Both the position numbers and the translations under genes were made by a program. Shown here one piece after another: positions 1,261 through 15,778 of a stretch of 15,778 nucleotides of DNA. Under the pieces are notes generated by a model. That model saw only the letters and a program-made list of their open reading frames with translations. It searched no databases and was not told the origin of the DNA. Source of the DNA: a virus (taxonomy: Duplodnaviria; Heunggongvirae; Uroviricota; Caudoviricetes); IMG/VR virus record IMGVR_UViG_2909298281_000001, positions 1 through 15,778 of that record. One strand, 5' to 3'. Numbering within the stretch: position 1 is the stretch's first letter; each line of letters begins with the position of its first letter.

Positions 1261-1393
1261 AAACTTTTGCTGAAGTTTCTAGAAATAAAATTTGCTATAA
1301 ATCGACTATTTAAAACTTGGTGGTTGATTTCAATGTGTATTTGTGTTAATGATCTTTTAAATTGAAAAATATTCATCTCAAGTTGACGATTTT

Positions 1394-2296
1394 ATGGAAA
1401 TATCGAAAAATAAAATTTGGGAAGCCAAAGAATGGGAATCTCATGTAAATGATTTACTCCGACTAAAATTTGGTGAAGTAAATTATATATCTATACCTGA
1501 TTTTCATAATGGGGACGCTGGAATTGAGGGATATTGTGTACAGGGATATGCTTTTCAGTCTTATTGTCCTAATGAGGCATGTACAGTTGATAAGTTGTAT
1601 GAAAAACAAAGAGACAAGATGACCGCGGATGTTGCAAAATTCATTTCAGATAAAAAGGGGTATTTAAAAGAAATTCTACAAAACACCAGAATAAAAAGAT
1701 GGATTTTGGTAGTGCCATCTCACTTATCTAAAAAATTGAATGTTCATGCAACAAAAAAAGAAAGTGAAGTTCTAGCTGCTAAATTACCTTATGTTGATAA
1801 TGATGATTTCAAGGTGCTTATTTGGGATCGAGAAAATTTCAAAAAAGAGGAAGATGAATTAATTAGCAGCGGGCTTAGATTATTGAGGATAGAACTTCCT
1901 GAAGTCGATATTAACGATATTGATAATCTAAAAGATAACAATAGCGAGTTTGGCGATAATATTTCAAGGAAGCTTAGAAAGATAAAAAATGATGAGCGTC
2001 AAGTACAGACAGCTTCAACTGTATTATTAAAAAATATAGTTATGTATAAAAACATCATGAGTGGCCTCAAAGATAACTATCCTAGTTTATATGAAAATAT
2101 AACAAATGGTATACTGGATCGTGAGCAAGATTTGTCCTTGGCTTTTTTTGATTCTGAAAATTTGACTCTGACTCAGCAAATTCAACACCTTAATGATAAG
2201 CTAAAACAGTCTAGCCGTCTTCATCAAGATAATCTAAAATGTATTTCTACCGGAGTGGTTGGTGATTGGCTAATGCGCTGTAATTTGGACTTTTAA
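1394..2296 (+). CDS. Hypothetical protein, 300 aa; first gene of hotspot cargo operon (candidate effector)
   Basis: ATG-initiated 300-aa ORF in a markedly A+T-rich segment. Stop TAA at 2294-2296 lies 2 nt before the next ATG (2299), consistent with an operon. No catalytic motif I can assign with confidence; the stretch IPDFHNGDAGIEGYCVQ could be a degenerate nuclease-like acidic motif but this is speculative. Confidence 0.6.
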   Translation: MEISKNKIWEAKEWESHVNDLLRLKFGEVNYISIPDFHNGDAGIEGYCVQGYAFQSYCPNEACTVDKLYEKQRDKMTADVAKFISDKKGYLKEILQNTRIKRWILVVPSHLSKKLNVHATKKESEVLAAKLPYVDNDDFKVLIWDRENFKKEEDELISSGLRLLRIELPEVDINDIDNLKDNNSEFGDNISRKLRKIKNDERQVQTASTVLLKNIVMYKNIMSGLKDNYPSLYENITNGILDREQDLSLAFFDSENLTLTQQIQHLNDKLKQSSRLHQDNLKCISTGVVGDWLMRCNLDF

Positions 2297-2298
2297 TC

Positions 2299-2763
2299 AT
2301 GGATATTCTAAAAGAAACGCCTGAAAAGATGACTTTTAACTCGACTGGTTCGCCTGTTGAACCCGAATTAAGACCCATCTGGAGAATATCCTTGCTTGCT
2401 ATCATTCTTAAAAAACTATGCAGAGGCTCTTCTGCGAGTTTAAAAAAAATGCAAGTTTTATATTCTTTGATTTCCTCCGCCGATAAAAGAAGTCGGTATT
2501 TCACTGAAGGAGGTAATGCGGATATAAGCATTCGGTTTGATCCTCTCTTAGATAGAGCTATTTCGTTGGGAGTGGCAGAAGGTATATTTACTTTGGATGC
2601 TGCAAAAAGCGTTGTGTTAACCAATAAGGGCACGCTCTTATCTAATAAAATTTACAAAGATTCAACATTATTCGTTTTTGAAAAGGAATTTATCGAGAAC
2701 TATAGTAAATCTGAATTTTCCGATAAAAAGATAGATCAAATATTATACAGGGGAATTATATGA
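2299..2763 (+). CDS. Hypothetical protein, 154 aa; middle gene of hotspot cargo operon
   Basis: ORF tightly packed between flanking genes; its stop TGA (2761-2763) overlaps the ATG of the next gene (2760-2762) as ATGA. AGGGGA Shine-Dalgarno-like sequence at 2748-2753 serves the downstream gene. No recognizable motif. Confidence 0.55.
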   Translation: MDILKETPEKMTFNSTGSPVEPELRPIWRISLLAIILKKLCRGSSASLKKMQVLYSLISSADKRSRYFTEGGNADISIRFDPLLDRAISLGVAEGIFTLDAAKSVVLTNKGTLLSNKIYKDSTLFVFEKEFIENYSKSEFSDKKIDQILYRGII

Positions 2764-3987
2764 GCAAACTTAAGATTGAGAGATTAATTATACGAACAAA
2801 TACTAGTGATGGAATATATGGGACAGACCTTAAATTTGGCTATGGTCTAAATATTATAAGTGCTGAGAACTCTTCTGGTAAATCCACCTGTATACAATCA
2901 ATTATTTATGCACTAGGATTGGAGGGAATATTGGGACCATCCAGAAAAAATCCCTTAAAGTCTGCTCTAACTACTAAATTACGTGATAATAATGATACTG
3001 AAATACCGGTTAATGAATCAAAAATTTATCTCCAACTTTCTAACGAACATTCAAGAAAAATAACTATTTTAAGAAAAAGTGATAGTGATATTTCAAAAAT
3101 CGTTACCGTATATGACTGTGAGTTCGATAAAATCAATCCTCACAAATTTACGGACTATTTTTTGAAAGATCCCGGTTCTGCTCAGCGTGAGAAAGGATTT
3201 CATTATTTTCTTTCGAATTTCTTAGGGATAACACAGCCCGAAGTGATTAAATATGATGGAACCAAGTGTCCACTTTATCTTGAGTCAATATTCACAGTTA
3301 ATTATGTAGAGCAAACAAGAGGTTGGGGTGGGATTCTAAATGTTATTCCTACTTACTTGGGTATTAAGGATTTATCACAAAACGTTCTTGAATATACTCT
3401 TAATTTAGATGTTCGAGAAATAAGAAAGAAACGCGAGATATTTTTAGATGAAAAGAAAAATCTTGAAACTAAATGGGCAAATACAATCTCAGAGTTAGAG
3501 TCTAATGCAAAGGCTTATGGCTTCTTTGTATCAACAAGAATACCTGATAAAATCACTACAAAATCAGATACCTATCAAGATAGTGATTTATATACATTGG
3601 ATGAAAATAATCGTGAGATTTCTTTACCACTATACAAGGCTCATAAAGAGAACGAATTAGAATATATTAGAGCACAATTAAAAAATAACGACATCCCTAA
3701 TGATGGGGTGTTAGATTCTGTTCTTGATAGTCTTCGAGTGAATTTAGCTAATCAAGAATATGCTCTTTCATTATTAATCTCTGACATAGAGTCTAATAAA
3801 CTGTATATAAGTTCAATTAATAAGAGTCTGACTGATACAAAAGAAAGTCTTAGAAAATATAGAGATATTGAAAAGCTTAAGTTATTGGGCTCGCAGGAGG
3901 ATTTTTCTTTTGTCACTGGTAGTTGCCCAACTTGTGGACAAGCCGTTGAAGATACTCTCTTACCAGCGAGCTTTGATGGAAAGACAT

Positions 3988-3996
3988 TAACGGTTG
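3988..3996. repeat. IS1 target-site duplication, left copy (TAACGGTTG)
   Basis: 9-bp TAACGGTTG immediately abuts the IS1 end and is repeated exactly at 4765-4773. Confidence 0.88.
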
Positions 3997-4011
3997 GGTA
4001 ATGACTCCAAC

Positions 4012-4515
4012 TTATTGATAGTGTTTTATGTTCAGATAATGCCCGATGACTTTGTCATGCAGCTCCACCGATTTTGAGAACGACAGCGACTTCCGTCCCA
4101 GCCGTGCCAGGTGCTGCCTCAGATTCAGGTTATGCCGCTCAATTCGCTGCGTATATCGCTTGCTGATTACGTGCAGCTTTCCCTTCAGGCGGGATTCATA
4201 CAGCGGCCAGCCATCCGTCATCCATATCACCACGTCAAAGGGTGACAGCAGGCTCATAAGACGCACCAGCGTCGCCATAGTGCGTTCACCGAATACGTGC
4301 GCAACAACCGTCTTCCGGAGCCTGTCATACGCGTAAAACAGCCAGCGCTGGCGCGATTTAGCCCCGACGTATCCCCACTGTTCGTCCATTTCTGCGCAGA
4401 CGATGACGTCACTGCCCGGCTGTATGCGCGAGGTTACCGACTGCGGCCTGAGTTTTTTAAGTGACGTAAAATCGTGTTGAGGCCAACGCCCATAATGCGG
4501 GCAGTTGCCCGGCAT
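4012..4515 (-). CDS. insB: IS1 transposase InsB reading frame, 167 aa (expressed as InsAB' fusion by -1 frameshift)
   Basis: Translation [25 protein letters not shown]...NIKHYQ matches IS1 InsB as I recall it; position and length are canonical within IS1. Confidence 0.9.
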
Positions 4516-4709
4516 CCAACGCCATTCATGGCCATATCAATGATTTTCTGGTGCGTACCGGGTTGAGAAGCGGTGTAAGTGAACTGCAGTTGCCATGTTT
4601 TACGGCAGTGAGAGCAGAGATAGCGCTGATGTCCGGCGGTGCTTTTGCCGTTACGCACCACCCCGTCAGTAGCTGAACAGGAGGGACAGCTGATAGAAAC
4701 AGAAGCCAC
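4434..4709 (-). CDS. insA: IS1 InsA transposition repressor, 91 aa
   Basis: Translation [43 protein letters not shown]... with zinc-finger CxxC..CxxC and HTH region; canonical IS1 InsA length. Confidence 0.93.
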
Positions 4710-4764
4710 TGGAGCACCTCAAAAACACCATCATACACTAAATCAGTAAGTTGGCAGCATCACC

Positions 4765-4773
4765 TAACGGTTG
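4765..4773. repeat. IS1 target-site duplication, right copy (TAACGGTTG)
   Basis: Exact repeat of 3988-3996 immediately after the IS1 terminal repeat. Confidence 0.88.
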
Positions 4774-5582
4774 AAGATAATATAAAGTATCTAGAAAAAA
4801 CCTATGCAGTATTTGATAGCTTGGCAAAAAGTGAAAAAATAAAATTTGAAAGAAAAGAAGCTGCATTAAAAGTAGCTAATGCTAAAGTTCGAGACTTGCG
4901 TAATCAGATCAAAGAAGTTCAGCGTAGCATATCATCTCCTATAAACTCCGAGCTTAGAGAACTCATAAGAAAGGAAGTTAAACTGGAAAAGGATATCGAC
5001 ATTTTAAACTCACTGGAGGAATTCGAAATTAGTAAAAAAGATACACTTATGGCTGTTCTTTCTGATTGGTATGATTGTAATAATCAACTAACAGTACTTC
5101 CGTATGATGGTTTTAGCAAAGCAGATATATTAAAGTTGAGGTTATTACGTGATTCATTTAAATCAAACTTGGAGGATTTTGGTTATAAAAGTACACCAAT
5201 TGAAGAGTTTGATTTATCGAGAAATACATACAAACCAACTGTCGATGGTATAGATATCGGCTCTGAAGCATCCGCCAGTGATAACATTAGGGTGATTTGG
5301 TCATATTTGTATTCATTGTTGATGTTAGATTCCAGTGCAAGAGATATCTCAACTAATCATTTGGGACTGTTGATTATGGATGAACCAAGACAGCAAGAAA
5401 CTAAAGATGCTAGTTTTAGAACACTAATTAAGAAAGCATCTGAGTCGTATATTCAAGAAAAACAGATTATTATGGGTACTAGTGAAAAATTTACTGATTT
5501 AATTGCCATGCTGGATGGTTTGCATGTGAATCTTTTGCATTTCGATAGTAATATTATCCGTAAACAGTAAATCCCTCAATGT

Positions 5583-5618
5583 CCTGTTGCATCGCTAAAT
5601 ACTTAGCGATGCAACAGG
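5583..5618. terminator. Perfect 16-bp hairpin downstream of the cargo operon (candidate intrinsic terminator)
   Basis: CCTGTTGCATCGCTAA (5583-5598), loop ATAC, TTAGCGATGCAACAGG (5603-5618), 13 nt after the stop at 5570, followed by A+T-rich sequence. The T-run is not immediately adjacent, so efficiency is uncertain. Confidence 0.5.
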
Positions 5619-5811
5619 GGTATATAATTATTTATTTGTGTTGAATATAACTTCATCCTAATTTTTTTGTTTATGAAAAAGTCACTAAGAATAATTCATT
5701 TGGTTCTATTCGTTTTTCATTAAAATATTTAATCGAGATATTCAAAGATTTATATTCTATTTTGTCAATTGAACTGGCTGTAAAAGAGAAATCATTTAAA
5801 GTTGGCGCGCA

Positions 5812-5830
5812 GTGCTTTCCCCGCCTCGCC
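5812..5830 (-). other. cos site (19-nt cohesive end of the P2/P4 family)
   Basis: GTGCTTTCCCCGCCTCGCC on the plus strand is the reverse complement of GGCGAGGCGGGGAAAGCAC, which I recall as the P2/P4 cohesive-end sequence. It sits between the cargo region and psu, where cos lies in integrated P4. Confidence 0.75.
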
Positions 5831-5933
5831 CGCCCGCTTTGCGGGGCGGTTTTAATGCAGTTGCACTGACACGCTCAGGCCGCGCCGGGAATGGCGCGGT
5901 CTGCAGAAAATGAGGCAAGAAAACGCATGCAAA

Positions 5934-5964
5934 GCCATGCACCTTATCGATGCATGGCTTTTTT
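5934..5964. terminator. Hairpin plus T-run downstream of psu (candidate terminator, possibly bidirectional)
   Basis: GCCATGCA (5934-5941), 9-nt loop, TGCATGGC (5951-5958), then TTTTTT (5959-5964) on the plus strand. On the minus strand the same hairpin lies about 30 nt past the psu stop but with a weaker U-tract. Confidence 0.4.
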
Positions 5965-5994
5965 CAGTAAAAACGGGCAGATTTTCGGGGAGTT

Positions 5995-6567
5995 TTACAC
6001 AGACTGATGTGATGCCAGTTGCGCACTTTTACGCGAAAAAATCATGTTCTGCGCAGGGGTGAATTTTTCACGGCTGTCATCCACCGAAGCCGCGTCAGGC
6101 CTGAATCCGATGGTCGTTAAAATGTCGCTATCCTGTGCGGAATAATTAATTTTTTCACCCTTCGCAAGCCAGGACAGGAGGGCTTCACGCAGGGCATCTG
6201 TGGCACGCTGTATGGCACAGTTTCGGGCAATGACCGTCAGTTCACTGTAGCCCATCAGCTCCGGTGCCAGTGCGGCCGCCAGTACTGTGCCGTGCTGCTG
6301 CATAAAATCATTCAGCCGGTCGCGGATGCTGATGTGCTGAACGGCTTCATGCGAACGAATATAACGACCGGCGGCCTGATTCACCTGCCATTTTCTGACT
6401 TCGATAATATTGCGTAATTCGTCCAGGCGACTGACGTTTCTGCCTTCTCCTGACAGAAGCCGCAGGTATTCCTGTTCGGCCGCTGCCAGCTCATTTTTGC
6501 GTTGCAGCCATGCTGCTTTGTTATTCTGATAGGTGTCAAAGGCCTGCTGTAAGGCTGTGCTTTCCAT
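5995..6567 (-). CDS. psu: Psu polarity-suppression protein (capsid decoration / Rho antagonist), 190 aa
   Basis: 190-aa ORF beginning MESTALQQAFDTYQNNKAAWLQRKNELAAAEQEY... Length and sequence character match P4 Psu as I recall it, and it is the last gene of a sid-delta-psu order. Confidence 0.9.
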   Translation of the reverse strand: MESTALQQAFDTYQNNKAAWLQRKNELAAAEQEYLRLLSGEGRNVSRLDELRNIIEVRKWQVNQAAGRYIRSHEAVQHISIRDRLNDFMQQHGTVLAAALAPELMGYSELTVIARNCAIQRATDALREALLSWLAKGEKINYSAQDSDILTTIGFRPDAASVDDSREKFTPAQNMIFSRKSAQLASHQSV

Positions 6568-6640
6568 CGTTATCTCTTTCTCATCATGCTGAAGAATAAA
6601 AATACGGTGTGCGGCGACGGCCGGTGTTAACCGGCAGCCC

Positions 6641-7141
6641 TCATTCCAGACGCAGCGAATATGATTGTGTTTTTAACCGTACTGGCGGCAGTTCCTGTTT
6701 TTCATGCAGGCGTTCTGCCAGTTCGTCCGGTGTGACCGGGCGGACAATGAAGCGGTTGATGGTCTGAAGCGTTTTAAACACCAGACCACAGCCCGGATCC
6801 GTGCACACATAAAAACGCTCGGTGACTTCCTGAGAGAGACGCCGCGATGTTCTTGACAGTGCAAGGCCTTTACATCTCCGACAACAATATCCGGTAACAA
6901 GCATTCTTTTCGGGCGTTTCATACTGCCGGAGGCTGACGTCAGTGAATCGCGGTATCTCTGTTTGCCTGAAATGTATTCCATTCCTGAATCTTTACTGTC
7001 AGAGAAAAAGCTTTCACTCGCTTCAAATGTCGCAGAGCAATAAATATTCCGGCACTGTGCAATCATTATCTTGGTGCCATCGTCCATGAAATGTGCGCGG
7101 CGGGTGTGAGCAACATGTCCACACGACGGGCAGTAAATCAT
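6641..7141 (-). CDS. delta: Delta late-gene transcriptional activator (tandem Ogr-like zinc-finger protein), 166 aa
   Basis: Two Ogr-type cysteine clusters (CPSCGH...CRNIYC and CRRC...CTDPGC) in a 166-aa protein, the P4 Delta length as I recall. ATGA overlap with the sid stop (7138-7141). Confidence 0.9.
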   Translation of the reverse strand: MIYCPSCGHVAHTRRAHFMDDGTKIMIAQCRNIYCSATFEASESFFSDSKDSGMEYISGKQRYRDSLTSASGSMKRPKRMLVTGYCCRRCKGLALSRTSRRLSQEVTERFYVCTDPGCGLVFKTLQTINRFIVRPVTPDELAERLHEKQELPPVRLKTQSYSLRLE

Positions 7142-7872
7142 GACAGCAGTCCTCTGGCCTTAAGCTCTGCTCCCTGCTGGTCTATTTTGTCCTGCCACAC
7201 CTTGCGCTGTGCCGGTGTGCCCGCCACCTCATAATCCATGTGCGGAAGTGTTGCCGCTGACAGTCCGGTCAGCCGGAGAACCGGCTCGCCGGTGAGGCTG
7301 ATTTGCATCTGTTTTATTTTCTGTTCCAGCGATGATTTCACCTGCTGCATGACAGCTTTATCGGGTGCGACGTAGCCCTGATGCCCGGTGGTGTTGGCGA
7401 GCGGATTTTCCTGTACCAGAATGCTCAGATGCATTGCCCGGACAAGCGCCTCACAGGTTTCATTCAGGGCGTGTTCCAGCTCATGCTCTGCATACAGACT
7501 CAGCAGGTGATGATGTGCCTTCCGGTAGGCGGTGGCCGTGCTGTCACACGCCCCTTTCAGGCGTTCACGTTCGAAATTCAGCACCACGGCCAGATTGTCA
7601 TATTCCTGTACCAGCTCCCGGCGTGCCACGCGCTCAATGTGGCGCTGTTTCAGCTCGTCGCTCAGGACACCACCGGCTGCACGAAAGGCCGTGCGCCAGT
7701 CGTCAGCGTCGTTTCCGTCGGCCTGCGCCAGCGCATTTTTTTCCTGCTCTGCCCGTTCAATGGCCGCGACGGTCTCATCCATCAGGCGGGCGTTCTCAAG
7801 ATGGGCGGCTCTGGCCTTTTCCAGTTGTGCCAGTGCGGGTTGCAGATATTCAGGGATAGTGTGGTCAGACAT
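7138..7872 (-). CDS. sid: Sid external scaffold (capsid size determination) protein, 244 aa from the ATG at 7872
   Basis: The track ORF (7138..7890) starts at a GTG. The in-frame ATG at 7870-7872 is preceded on the minus strand by GAGGAG about 8 nt upstream and gives 244 aa, the P4 Sid length as I recall. Coiled-coil-like, alanine-rich sequence. Confidence 0.85.
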   Translation of the reverse strand: MSDHTIPEYLQPALAQLEKARAAHLENARLMDETVAAIERAEQEKNALAQADGNDADDWRTAFRAAGGVLSDELKQRHIERVARRELVQEYDNLAVVLNFERERLKGACDSTATAYRKAHHHLLSLYAEHELEHALNETCEALVRAMHLSILVQENPLANTTGHQGYVAPDKAVMQQVKSSLEQKIKQMQISLTGEPVLRLTGLSAATLPHMDYEVAGTPAQRKVWQDKIDQQGAELKARGLLS

Positions 7873-7897
7873 TTTCCGGCTCCTCGTCACTTCAGGT

Positions 7898-7962
7898 TAA
7901 GAAAATTGTGACGTACACCGGACAACAACACGACGCATTGCAGATGTGCCAGCCCTGACACA
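7898..7962 (-). promoter_or_regulatory. Candidate Psid late promoter with two TGT-N12-ACA Delta/Ogr-type dyads
   Basis: Dyads TGTGCCAGCCCTGACACA (7945-7962) and TGTGACGTACACCGGACA (7907-7924), centres about 38 bp apart. With a predicted leftward start near 7898 (a CACAAT -10-like hexamer on the minus strand at 7910-7905), they sit at about -55 and -17. I recall P4 late promoters carrying an extra activator site near -18. Confidence 0.5.
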
Positions 7963-8041
7963 GGAGACTCATCCTCAGACCGGCAAGCCAGGAAAAGGTC
8001 GCAGGAAAAACCGGCTTACTGTTTGTTTTTTTATATTTTAC

Positions 8042-8145
8042 TGTTCACCTCTGTTCACCATAAGAAAAAAGATAAGTAATACAGTAAGTTAAAGGGTGAA
8101 CAATCGCAGTAATGACTGTTCACCGTCTGTTCACCACTGTTCACC
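8042..8145. repeat. Iteron cluster (TGTTCACC octamers), candidate P4-type ori
   Basis: Five direct copies of TGTTCACC (8042-8049, 8052-8059, 8118-8125, 8128-8135, 8138-8145) and one inverted copy GGTGAACA (8095-8102). The same octamer recurs in the crr repeats downstream of alpha, about 4.8 kb away, consistent with the P4 ori/crr arrangement as I recall it. Confidence 0.6.
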
Positions 8146-8302
8146 CGTTAATGGGCTTTTTGTGCTGTTCATTACTTTTTATTTTTATTAATTCACTGAA
8201 ATAAATAAGAAAAAACAATTTGTATTTCACTATAATTTTTTCCAGCTCCTTCCAGAGCGTTTTAAAGCTATCTGCGCTGATGTACAAAAAATACACAGCC
8301 AT

Positions 8303-8365
8303 TGTAAGACTGCCGGAACAAATCCCCCCTGTTGCGTCTGCCGAAAATATTCACAAAATAAAGCG
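8303..8365 (+). promoter_or_regulatory. Candidate PLL late promoter upstream of vis
   Basis: TGT-N12-ACA dyad TGTAAGACTGCCGGAACA (8303-8320) followed about 45 bp later by a CACAAA -10-like hexamer (8352-8357) resembling the Psid CACAAT. A second, imperfect dyad lies near 8339-8355. Start site predicted around 8365. Confidence 0.4.
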
Positions 8366-8422
8366 CTACCCGAAGCCGGACGGACTTATCCGGTGCTGTA
8401 TGGACATTAACGAGGTAGCCCG

Positions 8423-8689
8423 ATGCAAGCTGTTTTTTCTTCCCCGTCTCCCGCCCCTGTGACGCCACTGATGCCGCTGCCGGACATCACGCAGGAGCGT
8501 TTTTTACGTCTGCCGGAAGTGATGCACCTGTGCGGCCTGTCACGCTCGACCATCTATGAACTCATCCGTAAGGGGGAATTTCCGCCGCAGGTGAGTCTTG
8601 GCGGTAAAAATGTGGCCTGGCTGCACTCTGAAGTCACCGCATGGATGGCCGGGCGCATTGCCGGACGCAAACGGGGGTACGACGCATGA
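8423..8689 (+). CDS. vis: Vis-like / AlpA-family helix-turn-helix regulator, 88 aa
   Basis: GAGG 7 nt upstream of the ATG. Sequence ...[28 protein letters not shown].. is AlpA/Vis-type HTH in character. 88 aa matches the P4 orf88 (vis) length as I recall. Confidence 0.75.
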
Positions 8690-8724
8690 TGATGCCTGTT
8701 CTGCAAAAAGTCCCTTTTTCTGGC

Positions 8725-8754
8725 TTGCCTTTTTCCGGCATTTGCGGATATAGT
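8725..8754 (+). promoter_or_regulatory. Candidate PLE early/immunity promoter (sigma-70 type)
   Basis: -35 TTGCCT (8725-8730), 18-bp spacer, -10 TATAGT (8749-8754). Lies just upstream of the seqA-like element at about 8784-8810. Confidence 0.4.
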
Positions 8755-8929
8755 TTTTCCGCTGTCGCAAAATCGGCAGCCGGGCGTAGGAACCCGTGTA
8801 ACTCGAAGGCGACATATGACGCGCCATGCGTCTTTTTTTGTGTCGCAATCAACGCCACAGAGCGCCAGATTATGGTGTGGCGTGTGGTTTGCCGTGCAGG
8901 TATGATCCTGTTCGCAATCGCATGTTATG

Positions 8930-9008
8930 CCACTGAGTCAATGGTAGCTCAGGCGGGGCAGCCTCCGGGCTGGCCGGTATTCTTCGAGGCCGGTATTCCT
9001 ACCCCCGT
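8930..9008 (+). ncRNA. Candidate CI immunity RNA (P4-type RNA repressor) containing a seqB-like element; boundaries approximate
   Basis: A segment TTCTTCGAGGCCGGTATTCCTACCC (about 8980-9004) is complementary to two flanking elements that share GCGTAGGAAC...CTCGAAGG (about 8784-8810 and 9028-9068), matching the seqA/seqB/seqC logic of P4 immunity as I recall it. Ends cannot be set from sequence alone. Confidence 0.35.
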
Positions 9009-9078
9009 CTGGGCTATCGCCATCGAGCGTAGGAACTCCGGCGATAGCAGTTATTTGCTACTCGAAGGAGACGGCCTT

Positions 9079-9276
9079 ATGGCTACAACCCTTACCCCCT
9101 CACACCCTGAATTTGTCTTTGTGTTTGCGGCTGTCCGTCGCGCAGACCGTCATCCCCGTATCTGTATGCTTCGCACCGTCGCCGGTGATGAACGCAGTGC
9201 CCGCCGTTCCCTTGTCCGTGACTATGTGCTCTCCCTTGCTGCCCGTCTGCCGGTGGTGGAGGTGTCCCGTGCGTAA
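9079..9276 (+). CDS. Small protein, 65 aa, kil-like by position (first translated gene after the immunity RNA)
   Basis: ATG at 9079 preceded by AAGGAG (9065-9070), which lies inside the downstream seqC-like element. Stop overlaps the next gene's GTG start (GTGCGTAA, 9269-9276). Confidence 0.45.
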
Positions 9277-9556
9277 TAAAAAAGCCCCTCAGACCGTCTC
9301 AGCGCGTCATGACGCCCGTGAACACCTCAGCATTGAGGCTTACCATAAGCTCAACCGCGCCAGCGCCGTATCCCAGTTTGTTGGGGGTGATTTGATTCAC
9401 CGTGAACTCTCCGGCCTGCATCAGCTCTACATTCCGCATATTTTCAGCTACCTGAATGAAGATATTGATTTTGTGCTGAATGAGCTGAAAGCCAAAGGCC
9501 TGTGCCGCGATTTTCTCGCCCAGCAGAAAGACCGGGGAGACAGGACGCATGTTTGA
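9269..9556 (+). CDS. Epsilon-like small protein, about 95 aa from the GTG start (assignment by position)
   Basis: GTG at 9269 is preceded by GGAGG (9258-9262) and is in frame with the track ORF 9113..9556. Its stop overlaps the orf151 start. Sits immediately upstream of orf151 as the epsilon gene does in P4, as I recall. Confidence 0.5.
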
Positions 9557-10004
9557 TTTTCCCCAGCCCGGTGAGATTTACCGTTCTGCCGGTTTTCCCG
9601 ATGTGGCCGTGGTCGGCATTCTGGAAGACGGTATTCCGTGGGAAATGCCGTACCGCTGCCCGGACATTGTCTGGAACCCGTACCGCCGTAAATTCAGTAT
9701 CCTTGTGCGTATCCTCGCTGACGGGCGCACCACAGACATCCCGCTGGGGCGTTTTCTGCGGGAATTTACCTGTGACCGTCCTGACCTGTTTAAACGCAGC
9801 CCCGTAAACCGGCATGCGGTACTGAAAGAAATGGCCGGAGACCCGGAATTACAGAAATGGCGGGAGAAATATCTGGATATTTACCCGCAGGACCCTGTTC
9901 CGGTCAGCCGGGCGGCACCGGTGGCGCGGGAATGGCGGGAAATTCCCCGCACGGAGCCTGACCCGGAAATCACCCCGGATAACAGTTACCGCAATTATCT
10001 GTAA
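9549..10004 (+). CDS. P4 orf151-like protein, 151 aa
   Basis: Exact 151-aa length, position between the epsilon-like gene and alpha, and start overlapping the upstream stop (ATGTTTGA). Confidence 0.8.
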   Translation: MFDFPQPGEIYRSAGFPDVAVVGILEDGIPWEMPYRCPDIVWNPYRRKFSILVRILADGRTTDIPLGRFLREFTCDRPDLFKRSPVNRHAVLKEMAGDPELQKWREKYLDIYPQDPVPVSRAAPVAREWREIPRTEPDPEITPDNSYRNYL

Positions 10005-10139
10005 TTAAAAAACGACACCCGAAAAATTAAATGTGCGTATTCGCGCAGGGATACGCACGTCTTCAGGAGACGCAGATATGCCTTATCAGTTAATGCAACC
10101 GGCACGGAATGCAGTCATCTGTCACAGGGAGGAAAGCAA

Positions 10140-10460
10140 ATGAAAACACCCTTACCGCCCGTCTTACGCGCTGCCCTTTACCGTCGTGCTGTCGCCTGTG
10201 CCTGGCTGACCGTGTGCGAACGTCAGCACCGCTACCCGCATCTCACCCTTGAGTCACTGGAGGCGGCCATCGCCGCTGAGCTGGAAGGCTTTTATCTGCG
10301 CCAGCACGGTGAGGAAAAAGGGCGTCAGATAGCCTGTGCCCTGCTGGAAGATTTAATGGAATCCGGCCCCCTGAAGGCCGCGCCGTCGCTGTCCTTTCTC
10401 GGGCTGGTTGTGATGGATGAACTCTGTGCCCGTCACATAAAAGCGCCGGTACTGCACTGA
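10140..10460 (+). CDS. P4 orf106-like protein, 106 aa
   Basis: 106-aa ORF immediately upstream of alpha with matching codon usage. The name is from recollected P4 ORF nomenclature. Confidence 0.7.
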
Positions 10461-10474
10461 AGGAGAACTACACC

Positions 10475-12808
10475 ATGAAAATGAACGTAACCGCCACCGT
10501 CAGTCATGCGCTCGGCCACTGGCCGCGTATTCTCCCGGCGCTGGGGATTCAGGTGCTGAAAAACCGTCATCAGCCCTGTCCGGTCTGTGGCGGGAGTGAC
10601 CGCTTCCGTTTTGATGACAGGGAGGGGCGCGGCACCTGGTACTGCAATCAGTGTGGTGCCGGTGACGGCCTGAAACTGGTTGAAAAGGTGTTTGGTGTTT
10701 CCCCGTCCGACGCGGCCGCAAAGGTGGCTGCCGTGACCGGCAGCCTGCCCCCGGCTGACCCGGCAGTGACGGCCGCCGCCGTTGCTGAAACAGAAGCCGC
10801 CCGGAAGAACGCCGCCGCACTGGCACAAACCCTGATGGCGAAAACCCGTCCCGGAACCGGTAACGCCTACCTGACCCGCAAGGGCTTTCCCGGCCGGGAA
10901 TGCCGGATGCTGACCGGCACACACAGAGCCGGTGGCGTGAGCTGGCGCGCCGGTGACCTTGTGGTGCCACTGTATGACGACAGCGGCGAACTGGTTAACC
11001 TTCAGTTAATCAGTGCTGACGGCCGTAAGCGCACCCTGAAAGGCGGACAGGTCAGGGGCACCTGTCACATCCTTGAAGGACAGAATCAGGCCGGAAAACG
11101 TCTGTGGATAGCGGAGGGATACGCGACCGCACTTACCGTGCATCACCTGACCGGTGAAACGGTGATGGTGGCGCTTTCTTCCGTGAACCTCCTTTCTCTG
11201 GCCAGACTTGCCCGGCAGAAGCATCCGGCCTGTCAGATTGTCCTTGCCGCAGACCGTGACCTCAGCGGTGACGGCCAGAAAAAAGCCGCCGCAGCCGCAG
11301 ATGCGTGTGAAGGTGTTGTTGCCCTGCCGCCGGTCTTCGGTGACTGGAATGATGCCTTCACGCAGTACGGCGGGGAGGCCACCCGTAAGGCCATTTACGA
11401 TGCCATCCGGCCACCGGCTGAAAGCCCGTTCGACACCATGAGCGAAGCGGAGTTTTCCGCCATGAGTACCAGCGAAAAGGCCATGCGTATCTATGAGCAT
11501 TACGGCGAGGCGCTCGCGGTCGATGCCAACGGCCAGCTTCTGTCCCGTTATGAAAATGGTGTCTGGAAGGTGCTGCCGCCACAGGACTTTGCCCGGGATG
11601 TGGCCGGGCTGTTTCAGCGGCTGCGCGCGCCGTTCTCCTCCGGGAAGGTGGCCTCCGTGGTGGACACCCTGAAGCTGATTATTCCGCAGCAGGAAGCCCC
11701 CTCCCGCCGCCTGATTGGCTTTCGTAACGGTGTGCTCGACACACAGAACGGCACGTTCCACCCGCACAGTCCGTCACACTGGATGCGCACCCTGTGTGAT
11801 GTGGATTTCACCCCACCGGTGGAAGGGGAAACGCTGGAAACCCACGCCCCCGCGTTCTGGCGCTGGCTTGACCGTGCCGCCGGTGGCCGTGCGGAAAAAC
11901 GCGACGTGATTCTGGCCGCACTGTTTATGGTGCTGGCAAACCGCTACGACTGGCAGCTCTTTCTGGAGGTGACCGGTCCCGGCGGCAGCGGCAAAAGTAT
12001 CATGGCCGAAATAGCCACCCTGCTGGCCGGGGAGGATAACGCCACATCGGCCACCATTGAGACGCTGGAATCCCCGCGTGAACGTGCCGCGTTAACTGGC
12101 TTCTCACTGATACGCCTGCCTGACCAGGAAAAATGGAGCGGCGACGGTGCCGGACTCAAGGCCATCACCGGCGGCGATGCGGTGTCCGTTGACCCGAAAT
12201 ACCGGGATGCGTACTCCACGCACATCCCGGCGGTGATTCTGGCCGTGAACAATAACCCGATGCGCTTCACCGACCGCAGCGGCGGCGTGTCACGCCGGCG
12301 GGTGATTATTCACTTCCCTGAACAGATAGCCCCGCAGGAGCGCGACCCGCAGCTTAAGGACAAAATCACCCGCGAGCTGGCGGTCATCGTGCGTCACCTG
12401 ATGCAGAAATTCAGCGACCCGATGCTCGCCCGGTCACTGCTTCAGTCCCAGCAGAACTCAGACGAGGCGCTGAACATCAAACGGGATGCCGACCCGACGT
12501 TTGATTTTATCGGCTATCTGGAAACCCTGCCGCAGACCAGCGGCATGTATATGGGGAACGCCAGTATCATCCCGCGCAATTACCGTAAATACCTCTATCA
12601 CGCCTATCTGGCCTACATGGAGGCAAACGGCTACCGGAACGTACTCAGTCTGAAAATGTTCGGGCTGGGGCTGCCGGTGATGCTGAAGGAATACGGACTG
12701 AATTACGAGAAGCGCCATACCAAACAGGGGATACAGACCAACCTGACACTGAAAGAGGAAAGCTACGGCGACTGGCTGCCAAAATGTGACGACCCTGCAA
12801 CAGCCTGA
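10475..12808 (+). CDS. alpha: Alpha primase-helicase replication protein, 777 aa
   Basis: AAGGAGA ribosome-binding site (10460-10466). N-terminal zinc-binding CPVCGGSDRF...YCNQCGAGDG followed by a primase-type acidic region (..LAADRDLSGDGQ..). Central Walker A GPGGSGKS and D5-type SF3 helicase region. 777 aa is the P4 alpha length as I recall. Confidence 0.95.
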   Translation: MKMNVTATVSHALGHWPRILPALGIQVLKNRHQPCPVCGGSDRFRFDDREGRGTWYCNQCGAGDGLKLVEKVFGVSPSDAAAKVAAVTGSLPPADPAVTAAAVAETEAARKNAAALAQTLMAKTRPGTGNAYLTRKGFPGRECRMLTGTHRAGGVSWRAGDLVVPLYDDSGELVNLQLISADGRKRTLKGGQVRGTCHILEGQNQAGKRLWIAEGYATALTVHHLTGETVMVALSSVNLLSLARLARQKHPACQIVLAADRDLSGDGQKKAAAAADACEGVVALPPVFGDWNDAFTQYGGEATRKAIYDAIRPPAESPFDTMSEAEFSAMSTSEKAMRIYEHYGEALAVDANGQLLSRYENGVWKVLPPQDFARDVAGLFQRLRAPFSSGKVASVVDTLKLIIPQQEAPSRRLIGFRNGVLDTQNGTFHPHSPSHWMRTLCDVDFTPPVEGETLETHAPAFWRWLDRAAGGRAEKRDVILAALFMVLANRYDWQLFLEVTGPGGSGKSIMAEIATLLAGEDNATSATIETLESPRERAALTGFSLIRLPDQEKWSGDGAGLKAITGGDAVSVDPKYRDAYSTHIPAVILAVNNNPMRFTDRSGGVSRRRVIIHFPEQIAPQERDPQLKDKITRELAVIVRHLMQKFSDPMLARSLLQSQQNSDEALNIKRDADPTFDFIGYLETLPQTSGMYMGNASIIPRNYRKYLYHAYLAYMEANGYRNVLSLKMFGLGLPVMLKEYGLNYEKRHTKQGIQTNLTLKEESYGDWLPKCDDPATA

Positions 12809-12815
12809 CCCACCT

Positions 12816-12841
12816 GACCGGCATCTGCCGGTCTTTTTTTT
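12816..12841 (+). terminator. Rho-independent terminator after alpha
   Basis: GACCGGCA-TC-TGCCGGTC perfect 8-bp stem (12816-12833) followed directly by a run of eight T (12834-12841), 8 nt after the alpha stop. Confidence 0.75.
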
Positions 12842-12856
12842 ATCCCGATATCCCCC

Positions 12857-13160
12857 GAAGGTGAACAATCCACTGTTCACCCTTCACCGTATGTTCACCC
12901 GTTATCACACTGAAATTAAAAGAGAAAAACGAAAGGTGAACAGTGTGAACAATCAAATCAAAAAAAACTTTTTTCTTCCTGAGTGATTTCAGTACGGGGG
13001 ATTAATCACCGGTATGAGTCACACCGGCAGAATGCCGGAGGTGAAGAATCGAATGTTCACCCTTCACCCATTATTCACCATCTATTACTCTGAAATAAAA
13101 GGAGAAAATCAAAGGGTGAACAGTGTGAACAGTTCTTCCGAAAAAAAATTTTTTATGTGG
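12857..13160. repeat. crr (cis replication region): two direct repeats of about 120 bp, each with several TGTTCACC/GGTGAACA iterons
   Basis: Unit 1 about 12857-12980 and unit 2 about 13037-13160 align closely (e.g. ..GTTCACCCTTCACC..CTGAAAT.AAAAG.AGAAAA.C.AAAGGTGAACAGTGTGAACA..AAAAAAA.TTTTTT). The about 60-bp spacing matches my recollection of P4 crr. Confidence 0.7.
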
Positions 13161-13344
13161 GTAAAAGATGCACTGGTTTGGATCCGAGCTACGGATCCAA
13201 ACTCACTGATTAAAAATTAGTTAACTTTCCGATTTGTTGATGGGTTGAAAATAGATTGGTCAGAAAAACAGTGGGGGCACAAAAGGGGGCATATTTCATT
13301 TTTGTTTTTTATTATTTGTTTTTTATCATTGACTTATTTTGATA

Positions 13345-13366
13345 TTTGAGTCCGGCCTTCGCACCT
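13345..13366 (+). other. Candidate attR core: degenerate copy of a tRNA 3' end (right boundary of the element)
   Basis: TTTGAGTCCGGCCTTCGCACC resembles a tRNA T-arm/acceptor 3' end (TTCGAGTCCGGCCTTCGGCACCA type), with one substitution and one deletion relative to my recollection of a leucine tRNA end. Located after crr where attR is expected. Confidence 0.45.
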
Positions 13367-13575
13367 TCGCACCATCGGAACATCAATAGACATCAACGGA
13401 CGTTTTTTTATGACTGAAATCCGCGCCACACAAGGCTTTTCGCTATTTTTCGCTCAACCTAAGTCAACCTACATCAACTTACTGATGTGGATACAGCTAC
13501 AGCTGCGGCTATACCCCGATTCGATAATGTTTGTACCCACACAAAACCCTTGAAAGGCTACAAGGCTGAAATTGT

Positions 13576-13794
13576 CTAAACCATAGAGATGATTTTTATG
13601 ATCCAGTCTTTCTCTTGTTGAGATAGTTCCAGTTTGCTCACTCGTGTTAAGAAGGTATTGATCACCTGAACATCCGAATTGGTGAGCCTATTTAATAGAG
13701 CGGGTGGTATACCTTTACTAACAATCGCTTTGCGGTGACTTTCGTAGTTTTTATTACTCATTGTTGATCCTAAAAAATCATTGTATGGCGGCAT
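13576..13794 (-). CDS. Hypothetical small ORF, 72 aa (possibly the downstream fragment of a frameshifted gene)
   Basis: ORF from track only; lies 23 nt downstream of the 80-aa ORF on the same strand in a different frame. Confidence 0.3.
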   Translation of the reverse strand: MPPYNDFLGSTMSNKNYESHRKAIVSKGIPPALLNRLTNSDVQVINTFLTRVSKLELSQQEKDWIIKIISMV

Positions 13795-13817
13795 TGATCG
13801 TTTCCAGCAACCTTTAC

Positions 13818-14060
13818 TTACTCACTTCGAACTGCATCCTCGTAGACTGTTCCACTACAATAATCGAAAAGGCGCGGATGTCCATTCAGGTATCCCGCTA
13901 ATACGTATAGCAATAACAATGGCTTATGCGGCGCGCGCTGTTCACCCTTGTGCCAGATTTTTATATTGGCAATTGCCTGCTGTAGCGATTTACTGGAAGC
14001 TATTGATATCCCTGGCAGTGAAATAATTGCGATCATGCTCGCAAATTTTCTGCTGTTCAA
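13818..14060 (-). CDS. Hypothetical small ORF, 80 aa
   Basis: ORF from track. Weak local resemblance (I-x-I-W-x-x-G-E ... P) to the N-terminal region of the divergent HNH-domain protein at 14140..14790. Confidence 0.3.
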   Translation of the reverse strand: MNSRKFASMIAIISLPGISIASSKSLQQAIANIKIWHKGEQRAPHKPLLLLYVLAGYLNGHPRLFDYCSGTVYEDAVRSE

Positions 14061-14139
14061 GCCTGCAAGTGAAGATATATTACCTTGATCTCATTTGTTT
14101 TTTTGCTGCCTGTTCTGAGAACGTATAAGGACATTCTCC

Positions 14140-14790
14140 ATGAATAAACTCCCTGATCATCTTCCGCGGCGGTATATCATCGAAGCTATCCATTTATGGG
14201 ATGCGGGAGAAACTCATCAGTTCCAGCCTGCGCGGTTGTATGAGATTGAATATCATGGCCGACGTTACCCCTCGAAGGCGATTGCTGGCATCGCAGCGAC
14301 ATTGATGACGGGGACGCAATTTACCCCTGCGGATTTCACCGGCGGAATAAAATCTAAATGTGTCAAGCTACTCATAGAGCAGGGATTTCATATTCATCTG
14401 GATAAAGCCGCTGCGGCTCCCATAGCCGACGTTCTGTTCCCGGATGAGTTGCCGTCGCAGGAGACATACCTTGAAGGTGCGGCGATAAAGGTGACAGTAA
14501 ACCGCTATGAACGCGATAAAAAGGCCCGAGATAAAGCGGTCGAACATCATGGATGCCAGTGCAACGTATGCGGTGTTGATCTGGTGAAGATCTATGGTGA
14601 TATCGCTGAAGGCTTTATCCATGTGCATCACCTGGTGCCGCTGTCAGCCATTAAAGAGGATTACCAGCTGGATCCAGTTAATGATTTGCTGCCTGTGTAC
14701 CCTAATTGCCATGCGATGTTGCACCGACGCAAACCACCGTTTACGCCGGAGCAGTTAAAAGCGCTGATGGATGCGAATAAATCAAATTAA
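14140..14790 (+). CDS. HNH endonuclease-domain protein, 216 aa, with an uncharacterized N-terminal domain
   Basis: C-terminal HNH-type motif CQCNVCGV...HVHHLVPLS...N...YPNCHAMLH (two Cys pairs plus His-His and Asn). The N-terminal 130 aa has no motif I can assign. Confidence 0.75.
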   Translation: MNKLPDHLPRRYIIEAIHLWDAGETHQFQPARLYEIEYHGRRYPSKAIAGIAATLMTGTQFTPADFTGGIKSKCVKLLIEQGFHIHLDKAAAAPIADVLFPDELPSQETYLEGAAIKVTVNRYERDKKARDKAVEHHGCQCNVCGVDLVKIYGDIAEGFIHVHHLVPLSAIKEDYQLDPVNDLLPVYPNCHAMLHRRKPPFTPEQLKALMDANKSN

Positions 14791-14797
14791 TGAACGC

Positions 14798-15778
14798 TCA
14801 CCTTTCGCGCCAAAACTGCAAAATTGCTTCTACAAACTTGTCAGAAATAATCCCCCGACGGGCTGCCGTGCTGAAATGACTGCTTCGCAGTGCCGTCGTC
14901 CAGTTCTCCGGTGACCGGTACGCTGAACCGTAATATCCCGTGCTTAAATCGTCCGGGTCTTCATCAGGCGCGTTCGTCAGTCCTCTTTCACCTTGTTGCT
15001 GGAAGTCGACGAAAATAATATTGGCTAAAACATTATTTTGATAATTGCCATAAATAACTTCATACGCATGAGGGAAATTTTCTTTCCAGTACCAGGTGGT
15101 ATCGCCGCAAAACCACGGTGCGTCAGTAATATTATTAAGCTGAGAATGGTATTGTTTTAGATCCCTACGAAAGGCTTCAACCATATGATTAAAGTGTTGA
15201 GGGTGTGACGCGTAGTCACTGGTCATTAAGTCAAATTCGCCTTGCATCCAGCATACGCCGAGGAATTTGTTATGCGGATTTTTTGCCAGTGCTGCTCGCG
15301 TTCTGCTGACTAAATCCTGGTATAGCGGAGTATCCGTTCCCCAACGACAAGCATCATGGCTGGCTCCGTGCCGTTCTGAATATGTCCCTTCGCTGCCCGC
15401 GGTAAAAGCCGATCCGCCACGGCAACACGGAACGATGAGAACCCCTGCATTATCAGGAATAAAGGGCAGTAATTTCCGTGCTATATGCAGTGCCTGGCCA
15501 ACGGTGCCGTACTGTGTTTGATGATTCGTTGCCAGAGGATGGTGATAACCCTGCATATCCTGAACATCGTGTGGGCAGTGAGTCAGTGGAATCATGTCGT
15601 TAAAGTGACATGGCGGGCCTCCGGGATGCGTATGCGCAAATCTCGCTAATTGTTTGATTCTGGGATGAGGCGCATCTTCCCTGTCCGGTAATGGCAGTCC
15701 TTCGCCATACGCCATGGCATTAGACTGACCAGCAATGGTAAGAATATAGTAATAATCGGGCGATATTATTGCGTTCAT
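14798..15778 (-). CDS. nanS: Sialate O-acetylesterase (NanS/YjhS-like, SGNH-type esterase), 326 aa
   Basis: Complete minus-strand ORF whose ATG is the last codon of the window. N-terminal MNAIISPDYYYILTIAGQSNAMAYG with the GQSN catalytic-serine motif; 326 aa matches E. coli NanS as I recall. Confidence 0.8.
   Translation of the reverse strand: MNAIISPDYYYILTIAGQSNAMAYGEGLPLPDREDAPHPRIKQLARFAHTHPGGPPCHFNDMIPLTHCPHDVQDMQGYHHPLATNHQTQYGTVGQALHIARKLLPFIPDNAGVLIVPCCRGGSAFTAGSEGTYSERHGASHDACRWGTDTPLYQDLVSRTRAALAKNPHNKFLGVCWMQGEFDLMTSDYASHPQHFNHMVEAFRRDLKQYHSQLNNITDAPWFCGDTTWYWKENFPHAYEVIYGNYQNNVLANIIFVDFQQQGERGLTNAPDEDPDDLSTGYYGSAYRSPENWTTALRSSHFSTAARRGIISDKFVEAILQFWRER

Follow-up and report, generated by a model that had tools for sequence, protein, structure and literature searches.

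What holds a satellite prophage silent within its bacterial host, and what decides whether another of its type can become established there? These questions are raised by a locus at positions 8725-9276 of a 15,778-nucleotide stretch of tailed-virus DNA (Caudoviricetes; IMG/VR record IMGVR_UViG_2909298281_000001, positions 1 to 15,778), the whole of which is here termed 'the window', as it is this locus which would decide both. With high confidence it can be described as the region specifying immunity in a P4-like satellite prophage of Escherichia coli, most likely working as in phage P4. The locus, that is, is the known P4 antisense-RNA immunity switch, as found in a P4-like E. coli prophage, and not a discovery. 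Window positions 8400-9600 share 94.9% nucleotide identity with P4 (X51522/NC_001609, positions 7844-9053) over 1.2 kb, and the Rfam models C4 and isrK both match on the elements in question, in agreement with the original prediction, made from the letters alone, of a P4-style RNA immunity locus. That the host is E. coli is seen with the immunity stretch itself (8640-9300), which matches strain 300709 at 100%.

Addressed directly in what follows are the elements, their membership in known structure families, their complementarity and its covariation, the difference in allele from P4, and the maintenance of a long reading frame, eta, across the region. RNA processing, transcription termination, and the effect of translation are instead inferred from experiments with P4.

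Three elements and their pairing

I use here the terms seqA, seqB, and seqC, as employed with P4, to describe an upstream, a central, and a downstream element, respectively. The upstream element consists of GCGTAGGAAC (8784-8793) followed by CTCGAAGG (8802-8809), and the downstream element consists of the same two motifs (9027-9036 and 9061-9068). The central element, TTCTTCGAGGCCGGTATTCCTAC (8980-9002), has halves which are the reverse complements of those flanking motifs, in antiparallel order. Expressed as a pattern, i.e., GTAGGAA-N(5-35)-CTCGAAG, there are exactly three matches in the window, two of them on the plus strand (8786-8808 and 9029-9067) and one on the minus strand (8982-9002), versus a chance expectation of 0.01, and none of 200 dinucleotide-preserving shuffles reaches three. 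All of the features which had been picked out from the letters are present to within 1-2 nt, including AAGGAG at 9065-9070 and ATG at 9079. The proposed overlap of the downstream element with the ribosome-binding site of the first small gene, kil, is present as well, as box 2 of seqC extends over 9061-9069.

Each of seqA and seqC can be divided into a 'box 1' and a 'box 2', with seqB divided correspondingly into a junction part and a loop part (Table 1), and each interaction with seqB is one of loop against single strand. The loop part forms 8 bp with seqA box 2, including one G-U, and 9 bp with seqC box 2 (9061-9069 with 8980-8988), again including one G-U, with the latter covering AAGGA of the Shine-Dalgarno sequence. 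All four box interactions include Watson-Crick runs of 7 nt in the window. The seqB segment, as evaluated using RNAduplex, gives -30.7 kcal/mol with its own seqA and -30.6 kcal/mol with its own seqC. Shuffled targets give a mean of about -17 kcal/mol (standard deviation 3.5), with as good a duplex in only 2 (seqA) and 1 (seqC) of 1000, that is, the cognate duplexes lie well below the shuffles.

The two parts of seqB are found within a gene for a C4-type antisense RNA, the CI RNA. The minimum free energy (MFE) fold of this RNA is a cloverleaf of -48.2 kcal/mol (z = -3.97) made up of a 17-bp stalk, two successive hairpins, and a single-stranded junction of 8 nt, such that both the folding and the intermolecular pairing which had been suggested as checks come out as expected of an RNA immunity system. 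The ends of P4 CI RNA were reportedly mapped by Forti et al. in 2002, and transfer of those ends to the window yields a predicted mature CI RNA of about 80 nt, approximately 8943-9022 and ending in CCA. The stable RNA of about 70 nt that had been anticipated thus should be somewhat longer.

Upstream of the CI RNA gene is an isrK-like leader. The predicted, sigma-70-like promoter PLE displays no difference from P4 in the alignment, and the Rfam isrK model begins at 8761, agreeing with the predicted PLE start. The isrK alignment gives the order of parts within the leader as hairpin 1, then hairpin 2 with seqA box 1 in its loop, then a single-stranded stretch with box 2, and then the intrinsic terminator t1, which is conserved in 57 of 57 related loci (see below). 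Elsewhere the isrK and C4 families have been equated with, respectively, the 'seqA RNA' and the CI RNA of P4 (PMC3632133, PMC4825925). A further Rfam model, RF03163 (c4-a1b1), reaches 44.6 bits at 8748-8800, which is under its gathering threshold of 46.7 and so is not counted, though the same model passes in many homologues.

Covariation and the immunity allele

Homologues were obtained by scanning species-representative genomes with the Eta protein, resulting in 57 loci from Klebsiella, Citrobacter, Enterobacter, Pantoea, Serratia, Edwardsiella, Pectobacterium, and other Enterobacterales. Both the isrK-like and the C4 match are present in 56 of the 56 loci that include the region, the one locus left out of that count, L046, beginning inside of the open reading frame (ORF) and beyond the RNA elements. 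Dereplication resulted in 48 distinct element sets, P4 and the window included. Among these, the junction has a cognate Watson-Crick run of 7 nt with seqA box 1 in 48 of 48 sets and likewise with seqC box 1 in 48 of 48, while the loop has cognate runs averaging 7.7 nt with seqA box 2 and 8.5 nt with seqC box 2. The non-cognate mean is about 3.6 nt in each of the four cases.

Covariation was counted over 15 pairs in a MAFFT alignment of 44 distinct seqA-plus-seqB sequences. There, 95.8% of seqA-seqB cells are paired, versus 66% in shuffles and at most 51% with partners slid by 1-3 columns, and double changes are found at 12 of the 15 pairs, with 185 cells changed on both sides. Helix 2 (seqA box 2 with the CI loop) has 99.7% of its cells paired and double changes at six of eight pairs. 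Helix 1 (seqA box 1 with the CI junction) has double changes at six of seven pairs, and all of its unpaired cells stem from a gap misplaced by MAFFT, with a shift of one, in seven of eight 72-nt rows; in a register-free test those seven rows are fully paired. The GGAG directly following seqC box 2 also is kept in 55 of the 57 loci. Complementarity thus is conserved across homologues even as box sequences change, which is the strongest computational support for an antisense mechanism and particularly for the postulated pairing of a small CI RNA with the leader, the steps that would follow that pairing being transferred from P4.

Comparison with the P4 cI region, also suggested as a check, finds the two regions to be homologous, with differences in the boxes that are coordinated. 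The alignment contains 48 substitutions, 16 of which are among the 45 nt making up the six boxes (odds ratio 10, p = 7e-9). The CI RNAs differ at six positions, of which five are inside of the seqB boxes and the sixth, 8981, directly adjoins the loop box. Box 1 is GUAGGAA/UUCCUAC in the window versus GUGAGAA/UUCUCAC in P4, and box 2 is CUCGAAGG/CUUCGAG versus UUCACAGG/CCUGUGAA, with these substitutions matched, that is, compensating one another. Consistently, the cognate duplexes of P4 come to -33.1 and -34.3 kcal/mol, whereas the four cross combinations of window with P4 come to between -15.4 and -21.3 kcal/mol and have contiguous runs of 2-4 nt rather than 7-9. For homoimmunity, the seqB boxes should be identical to those of P4 or fully complementary to P4 seqA and seqC, and they are neither. 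As cross pairing is weak and the box changes are matched, the window element therefore should be heteroimmune to P4. Otherwise the two share element order, spacing, promoter, terminator, CI cloverleaf, a 65-amino-acid kil, and an eta frame with three ATGs that is coupled to vis, though in the window t1 and cI are separated by a spacer that is shorter by 9 nt, and seqC has a +1/-1 indel pair, 27 nt apart, by which the eta frame is preserved. A CI RNA identical to that of the window is found in 145 complete-genome E. coli records, and the P4 allele in 206. The box-2 allele of the window (CUUCGAG/CUCGAAG) is found in none of the 57 loci of species-representative genomes.

Over the 48 sets from 57 loci, 26 combinations are seen of 7 box-1 types with 16 box-2 types. 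The boxes vary semi-independently, with each type mirrored at seqA, seqB, and seqC. In genomes with two or three P4-like elements (L022/L031/L033 in Enterobacter chuandaensis, along with L023/L043, L034/L045, L014/L035, L007/L057, L042/L054, and L020/L026), no two elements have both boxes alike, but one box is alike in several co-resident pairs, e.g., box 2 in L022/L031 and box 1 in L022/L033. Such a pattern hints at cross-immunity requiring both boxes, the numbers being too small for significance. Tentatively, and with the chances perhaps somewhat short of even, P4-like satellites may be viewed as possessing a two-box, combinatorial immunity 'address', one that evolves inside of an eta frame which is kept open solely for ribosome transit. 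New immunity groups, if both boxes indeed are needed, could then arise through box-shuffling recombination, and the Ash protein family (below) would be largely a shadow of conservation at the RNA level.

Certain loci depart from this organization. In L058, L059, and L060 (Pectobacterium, Brenneria) the isrK-like leader and the C4 RNA are only 25 nt apart and there is no open eta frame, with kil, otherwise 64-65 amino acids, replaced by an ORF of 153 amino acids in L058 and L059 and of 41 in L060. The RNA module is the same, but its architecture differs. In L042, L047, L053, and L054 the eta frame is broken, either by a single stop or by 1-nt indels within or adjacent to the CI gene, with RNA elements intact, and these may be decaying prophages or assembly errors. 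Additional Rfam matches in flanking sequence are to EFASI RNA (114 bits; L059, 3965-4095) and int-alpA RNA (43 bits; L056, 105-173).

A probable route from pairing to silence: termination, kil, and the eta frame

How might pairing give rise to silence? As based on the P4 literature (PMC4825925, PMC3632133, PMC10111431), PLE would transcribe first the leader, that is, seqA and t1, then the CI RNA gene, and then seqC and kil. The CI RNA would be excised from that transcript, a task which in P4 falls to RNase P (5' end) and PNPase (3' end), and an approximately 80-nt, stable cloverleaf would accumulate. The seqB of this RNA, i.e., the loop of hairpin 2 along with the junction, would pair with both boxes of seqA and of seqC on new PLE transcripts. 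Pairing at seqA would raise termination at t1, giving rise to CI autoregulation, while pairing at seqC would mask the kil ribosome-binding site. With no kil translation, transcription would end before the replication genes (epsilon, cnr, alpha) are reached, and the consequence would be a quiescent prophage as well as repression of a superinfecting element of the same type.

From a different perspective, control might be purely translational, as with the c4-icd-ant system of phage P1. CI would then only mask the kil site at seqC, loss of expression downstream would be a matter of ordinary Rho polarity, and seqA with t1 would be a side branch lacking a role in immunity. The covering of AAGGA by seqC box 2 would fit with this, as too would membership of the RNA in the same Rfam family as P1/P7 c4, an Icd-like kil as in P1, and description of the P1/P7 mechanism as a translational block (PMC12197685). 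SeqA, however, covaries with seqB as tightly as does seqC, and it directly precedes a conserved intrinsic terminator in 57 of 57 loci, from which it follows that seqA is under selection as a target. P4 CI RNA is, in addition, said by Briani et al. in 2000 to have enhanced t1 termination in vitro without host factors, which also counts against translation being the whole of the control. So too do transposon data from S. Typhi, which point to a requirement for the isrK-like element in the P4-like prophages there (PMC3632133). A solely translational mechanism thus is viewed as unlikely.

The leader instead could be the player of interest. That is, the t1-terminated, isrK-like leader could be the main trans-acting regulator, either opening the downstream ribosome-binding site, as IsrK does in Gifsy-1, or serving as a sponge for CI, thereby making the locus an activator or anti-immunity switch. 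The full-length Rfam isrK match is in keeping with such a role, and IsrK does activate orf45-anrP translation in trans, with seqA RNA having been called its structural homologue (PMC4825925). The leader moreover holds a perfect CI target and therefore must titrate CI to some extent. The leader and seqC nevertheless are of the same polarity in both boxes, and the leader as a consequence cannot pair with and open seqC, but can only compete for CI. Covariation, too, links seqB to both targets, and P4 genetics give cI as the immunity factor with seqA and seqC as its targets (PMC4825925, PMC10111431, PMC3632133). A regulatory leader in this sense is quite improbable.

Against silencing by CI RNA along the lines of P4, which is the reading preferred here, there nonetheless are a number of points that should be weighed. 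Everything downstream of base pairing, to begin with, is transferred from P4. RNAduplex energies, second, by themselves discriminate poorly. The background over the whole window is -28 to -31 kcal/mol, because the seqB fragment includes a GC-rich hairpin stem, and an unrelated 33-nt stretch (12662-12694) gives -30.9 kcal/mol with seqB; it is for this reason that the argument is built instead on the exact two-box register and on covariation. Third, leader folds provide no explanation of how CI binding at seqA promotes t1, as in the isolated leader t1 forms both with and without seqA blocked. Lastly, the CI cloverleaf is absent from the MFE fold of the nascent transcript taken as a whole (340 nt), and therefore co-transcriptional folding or processing must be assumed.

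An alternative helix is conserved as well. In it GCUAUCGCC (9013-9021; also written GCTATCGCC), which is the 3' side of the CI stalk, is perfectly complementary to GGCGAUAGC (9041-9049; also written GGCGATAGC), just past seqC box 1, with 8-11 bp, including G-U, in 57 of 57 loci and 15 different sequence pairs. Such a helix would compete with the CI stalk in the unprocessed transcript, placing seqC box 1 in a loop.

Among the protein-coding sequences, translation of PLE transcripts begins with kil, which also makes up the C-terminal part of eta. It displays no difference from P4 within the aligned stretch. The eta ORF spans PLE, seqA, t1, the CI RNA gene, and seqC before ending as kil. It can begin at any of three consecutive ATGs (8686, 8689, and 8692, giving 196, 195, or 194 amino acids in the window versus 199, 198, or 197 in P4), the first of which overlaps the TGA stop of vis as ATGA. 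For P4, eta has been described as nested with kil and as coupled to alpA/vis, which precedes it, with its translation restricted to transcripts from PLL, the late promoter (PMC10111431, citing Forti et al. 1999). With firing of PLL, upstream of vis, ribosomes thus would translate vis and then, by ATGA coupling, eta, moving through seqA, CI, and seqC, and immunity would be overridden.

The PLL activator site, reportedly, as according to Forti in 1999, is found about 400 nt upstream of PLE. The TGT-N12-ACA sequence at 8303-8320, TGTAAGACTGCCGGAACA, is at a position that fits with that distance and is a candidate for this site. Within 7907-7962 and 8040-8150 there are two more TGT-N12-ACA sites, just upstream of sid on the other strand, which are candidates for the Psid activator site, along with repeated units of TGTTCACC, the counterparts of what in the replication origin of P4 are termed type 1 repeats.

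It had been suggested that the 211-amino-acid ORF across this region is probably not a real gene. As worded this is not supported, as the ORF is P4 eta, it is annotated by PGAP (for the identical sequence in E. coli strain 300709, as a 591-nt coding sequence of 196 amino acids, 'host cell division inhibitor Icd-like protein'), and it is maintained. Specifically, the eta frame is stop-free in 50 of 57 loci, from about 75 nt upstream of the leader to the kil ATG, versus 237 and 296 stops in total in the other two frames over the same interval (4-5 per locus each). Spacer lengths between t1 and cI furthermore are 62, 65, 68, 98, and 107 nt, all 2 modulo 3, the exceptions being frameshifted loci with spacers of 61 or 106 nt. 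What does hold in the suggestion concerns the product. The eta-specific part (about 131 codons) lacks the third-position wobble signature of kil, with entropies at the first, second, and third codon positions of 0.79/0.86/0.82 before PLE, 0.47/0.42/0.40 in the leader, 0.96/0.97/0.95 in the spacer, 0.53/0.50/0.52 in CI, and 0.85/0.89/0.73 in seqC, versus 0.46/0.38/1.00 in kil, where third-position wobble is strong. With no sign of constraint at the amino-acid level, it is the translation of eta more than its product that seems to matter. Apparently, then, as judged from these sequences, the frame is real and is maintained for the act of translation, i.e., for anti-termination from PLL.

Could there instead be no RNA system, with the region encoding a 196-211-amino-acid Ash/Icd-like protein and the motifs representing protein repeats or chance? 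There is a match to Pfam Phage_ASH (PF10554; 81.3 bits) over eta residues 22-143, PGAP gives a single coding sequence and no RNA, and the frame is open in most homologues. That match, however, is to window positions 8749-9114, which coincide exactly with PLE, seqA, t1, CI RNA, and seqC, and codons beneath it are equally variable at their three positions, unlike those of kil. The central motif, too, is the reverse complement of the flanking ones rather than a direct repeat, two Rfam structure models match over their full length, and compensatory changes keep pairing even while encoded amino acids change. On these grounds a protein-only locus was rejected, its probability being close to nil. Conservation beneath the Ash match seems to derive from the RNA and promoter elements. 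Matches that are C4-like, at 890 places on E. coli plasmids, likewise carry the annotation 'ash family protein', and the Ash family may largely reflect conserved RNA-coding DNA rather than a protein domain.

Gene neighbourhood and known systems

The gene content surrounding the locus is that of a P4-like satellite, with integrase, psu-delta-sid, vis, epsilon, cnr, and alpha all present, and the order about the locus is that of P4 (psu, delta, sid, vis, kil/eta, epsilon, orf151, cnr, alpha). For the remainder of the window, identity with other E. coli chromosomes is about 97%, over up to 77% of its length. Between integrase and psu, in a variable hotspot, is a Lamassu defence system (1394-5570), probably inactivated by an IS1 insertion which splits LmuB. 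Past alpha are an HNH-domain ORF (14140-14790; 216 amino acids), weakly similar to methyl-directed restriction enzymes of type IV, and a minus-strand ORF (14798-15778) that is sialate O-acetylesterase-like (SASA).

Table 1. Features of the window, in order along it; positions are those of the window, and empty cells are ones for which nothing is given.
Feature	Position	Strand	Basis or remark
Integrase	1-1260		P4 gene set
LmuA	1394-2296		Lamassu
LmuC	2299-2763		Lamassu
LmuB, N-terminal part	2760-4001		profile positions 2-334 of 610
IS1 transposase ORF	4012-4515	-	insertion splitting LmuB
LmuB, C-terminal part	4821-5570		profile positions 361-597
psu	5995-6567	-	P4 gene set
delta	6641-7141	-	P4 gene set
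sid	7138-7890	-	P4 gene set
Candidate PLL late-promoter activator site	8303-8320	+	pattern match; about 395 nt upstream of PLE start
vis (ORF88, AlpA-type excisionase/regulator)	8423-8689	+	Pfam Phage_AlpA, 74.2 bits; homologue of P4 ORF88
eta ORF	8686-9276	+	196 amino acids from first ATG; mechanical ORF 8641-9276, 211 amino acids
PLE, predicted constitutive early promoter (TTGCCT-18-TATAGT)	8725-8754	+	promoter scan; predicted start near 8761
isrK-like leader RNA ('seqA RNA' in P4 literature), 78 nt	8761-8838	+	Rfam RF01394, 69.4 bits (gathering 50), full length
seqA box 1 (GUAGGAA)	8786-8792	+	pairs with CI junction 8996-9002
seqA box 2 (CUCGAAGG)	8802-8809	+	pairs with CI loop 8981-8988
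t1 intrinsic terminator (GACGCGCCATGCGTC plus seven T)	8818-8838 (hairpin 8818-8832)	+	terminator scan; terminal hairpin of isrK model
CI RNA gene (C4-type antisense RNA)	8937-9024	+	Rfam RF01695 C4, 74.4 bits (gathering 45), model positions 1-87
seqB loop part (UCUUCGAG)	8981-8988	+	loop of CI hairpin 2, Rfam alignment
seqB junction part (UUCCUAC)	8996-9002	+	single-stranded CI junction, Rfam alignment
seqC box 1 (GUAGGAA)	9029-9035	+	7 bp with CI junction
seqC box 2 (CUCGAAGGA)	9061-9069	+	overlaps Shine-Dalgarno AAGGAG 9065-9070
kil, 65 amino acids, Icd-like cell-division inhibitor	9079-9276	+	NCBIfam NF033153 phage_ICD_like, 76.1 bits
epsilon	9269-9556		P4 gene set
orf151	9549-10004		P4 gene set
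cnr	10140-10460		P4 gene set
alpha primase-helicase	10475-12808		777 amino acids, P4-family primase domain

The mechanism has been known since the 1990s, the RNA families and heteroimmune variants have been described, and the locus by itself adds little. The largest survey of P4-like satellites nonetheless is without any discussion of CI RNA (PMC8628076). What is added here is, first, that a common E. coli allele is predicted to be heteroimmune to P4 and, second, that, among Enterobacterales, immunity types resemble mosaics built from two boxes that vary independently. For annotation, the ORF that pipelines label as an 'Icd-like/Ash protein' would seem to be mostly RNA-coding sequence that is kept translatable.

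Among known systems, the retronphage phiR73, which is P4-like, is reportedly heteroimmune to P4 through changes in seqA, seqB, and seqC, as according to Sabbattini et al. in 1996. The principle would be the same, that is, a resetting of immunity specificity by matched changes in three elements, though phiR73 is absent from the phage collection compared and a search of papers gave nothing on phiR73 immunity sequences.

The c4 RNA of phages P1 and P7 belongs to the same Rfam family and clan and has, similarly, a two-part antisense determinant. Its targets, a1 b1 and a2 b2, are upstream of icd-ant, with one set found before the RNA gene and one over an icd-like ribosome-binding site, and heteroimmunity there likewise results from changes in the pairing sequences. 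The regulated product in P1 and P7, however, is an antirepressor within a protein-repressor circuit, whereas in the window it is satellite replication genes, with no protein repressor. Unlike P1 and P7, the window also has the eta read-through frame and the intrinsic terminator t1.

With IsrK/STnc1160 of Salmonella Gifsy-1, lastly, the leader fits the isrK model and a C4-like processed RNA is found downstream, just as in the window. Gifsy-1 IsrK, though, is reported to be a trans-activator of orf45-anrP translation, while the homologous leader of the window would be instead the target of an antisense RNA.

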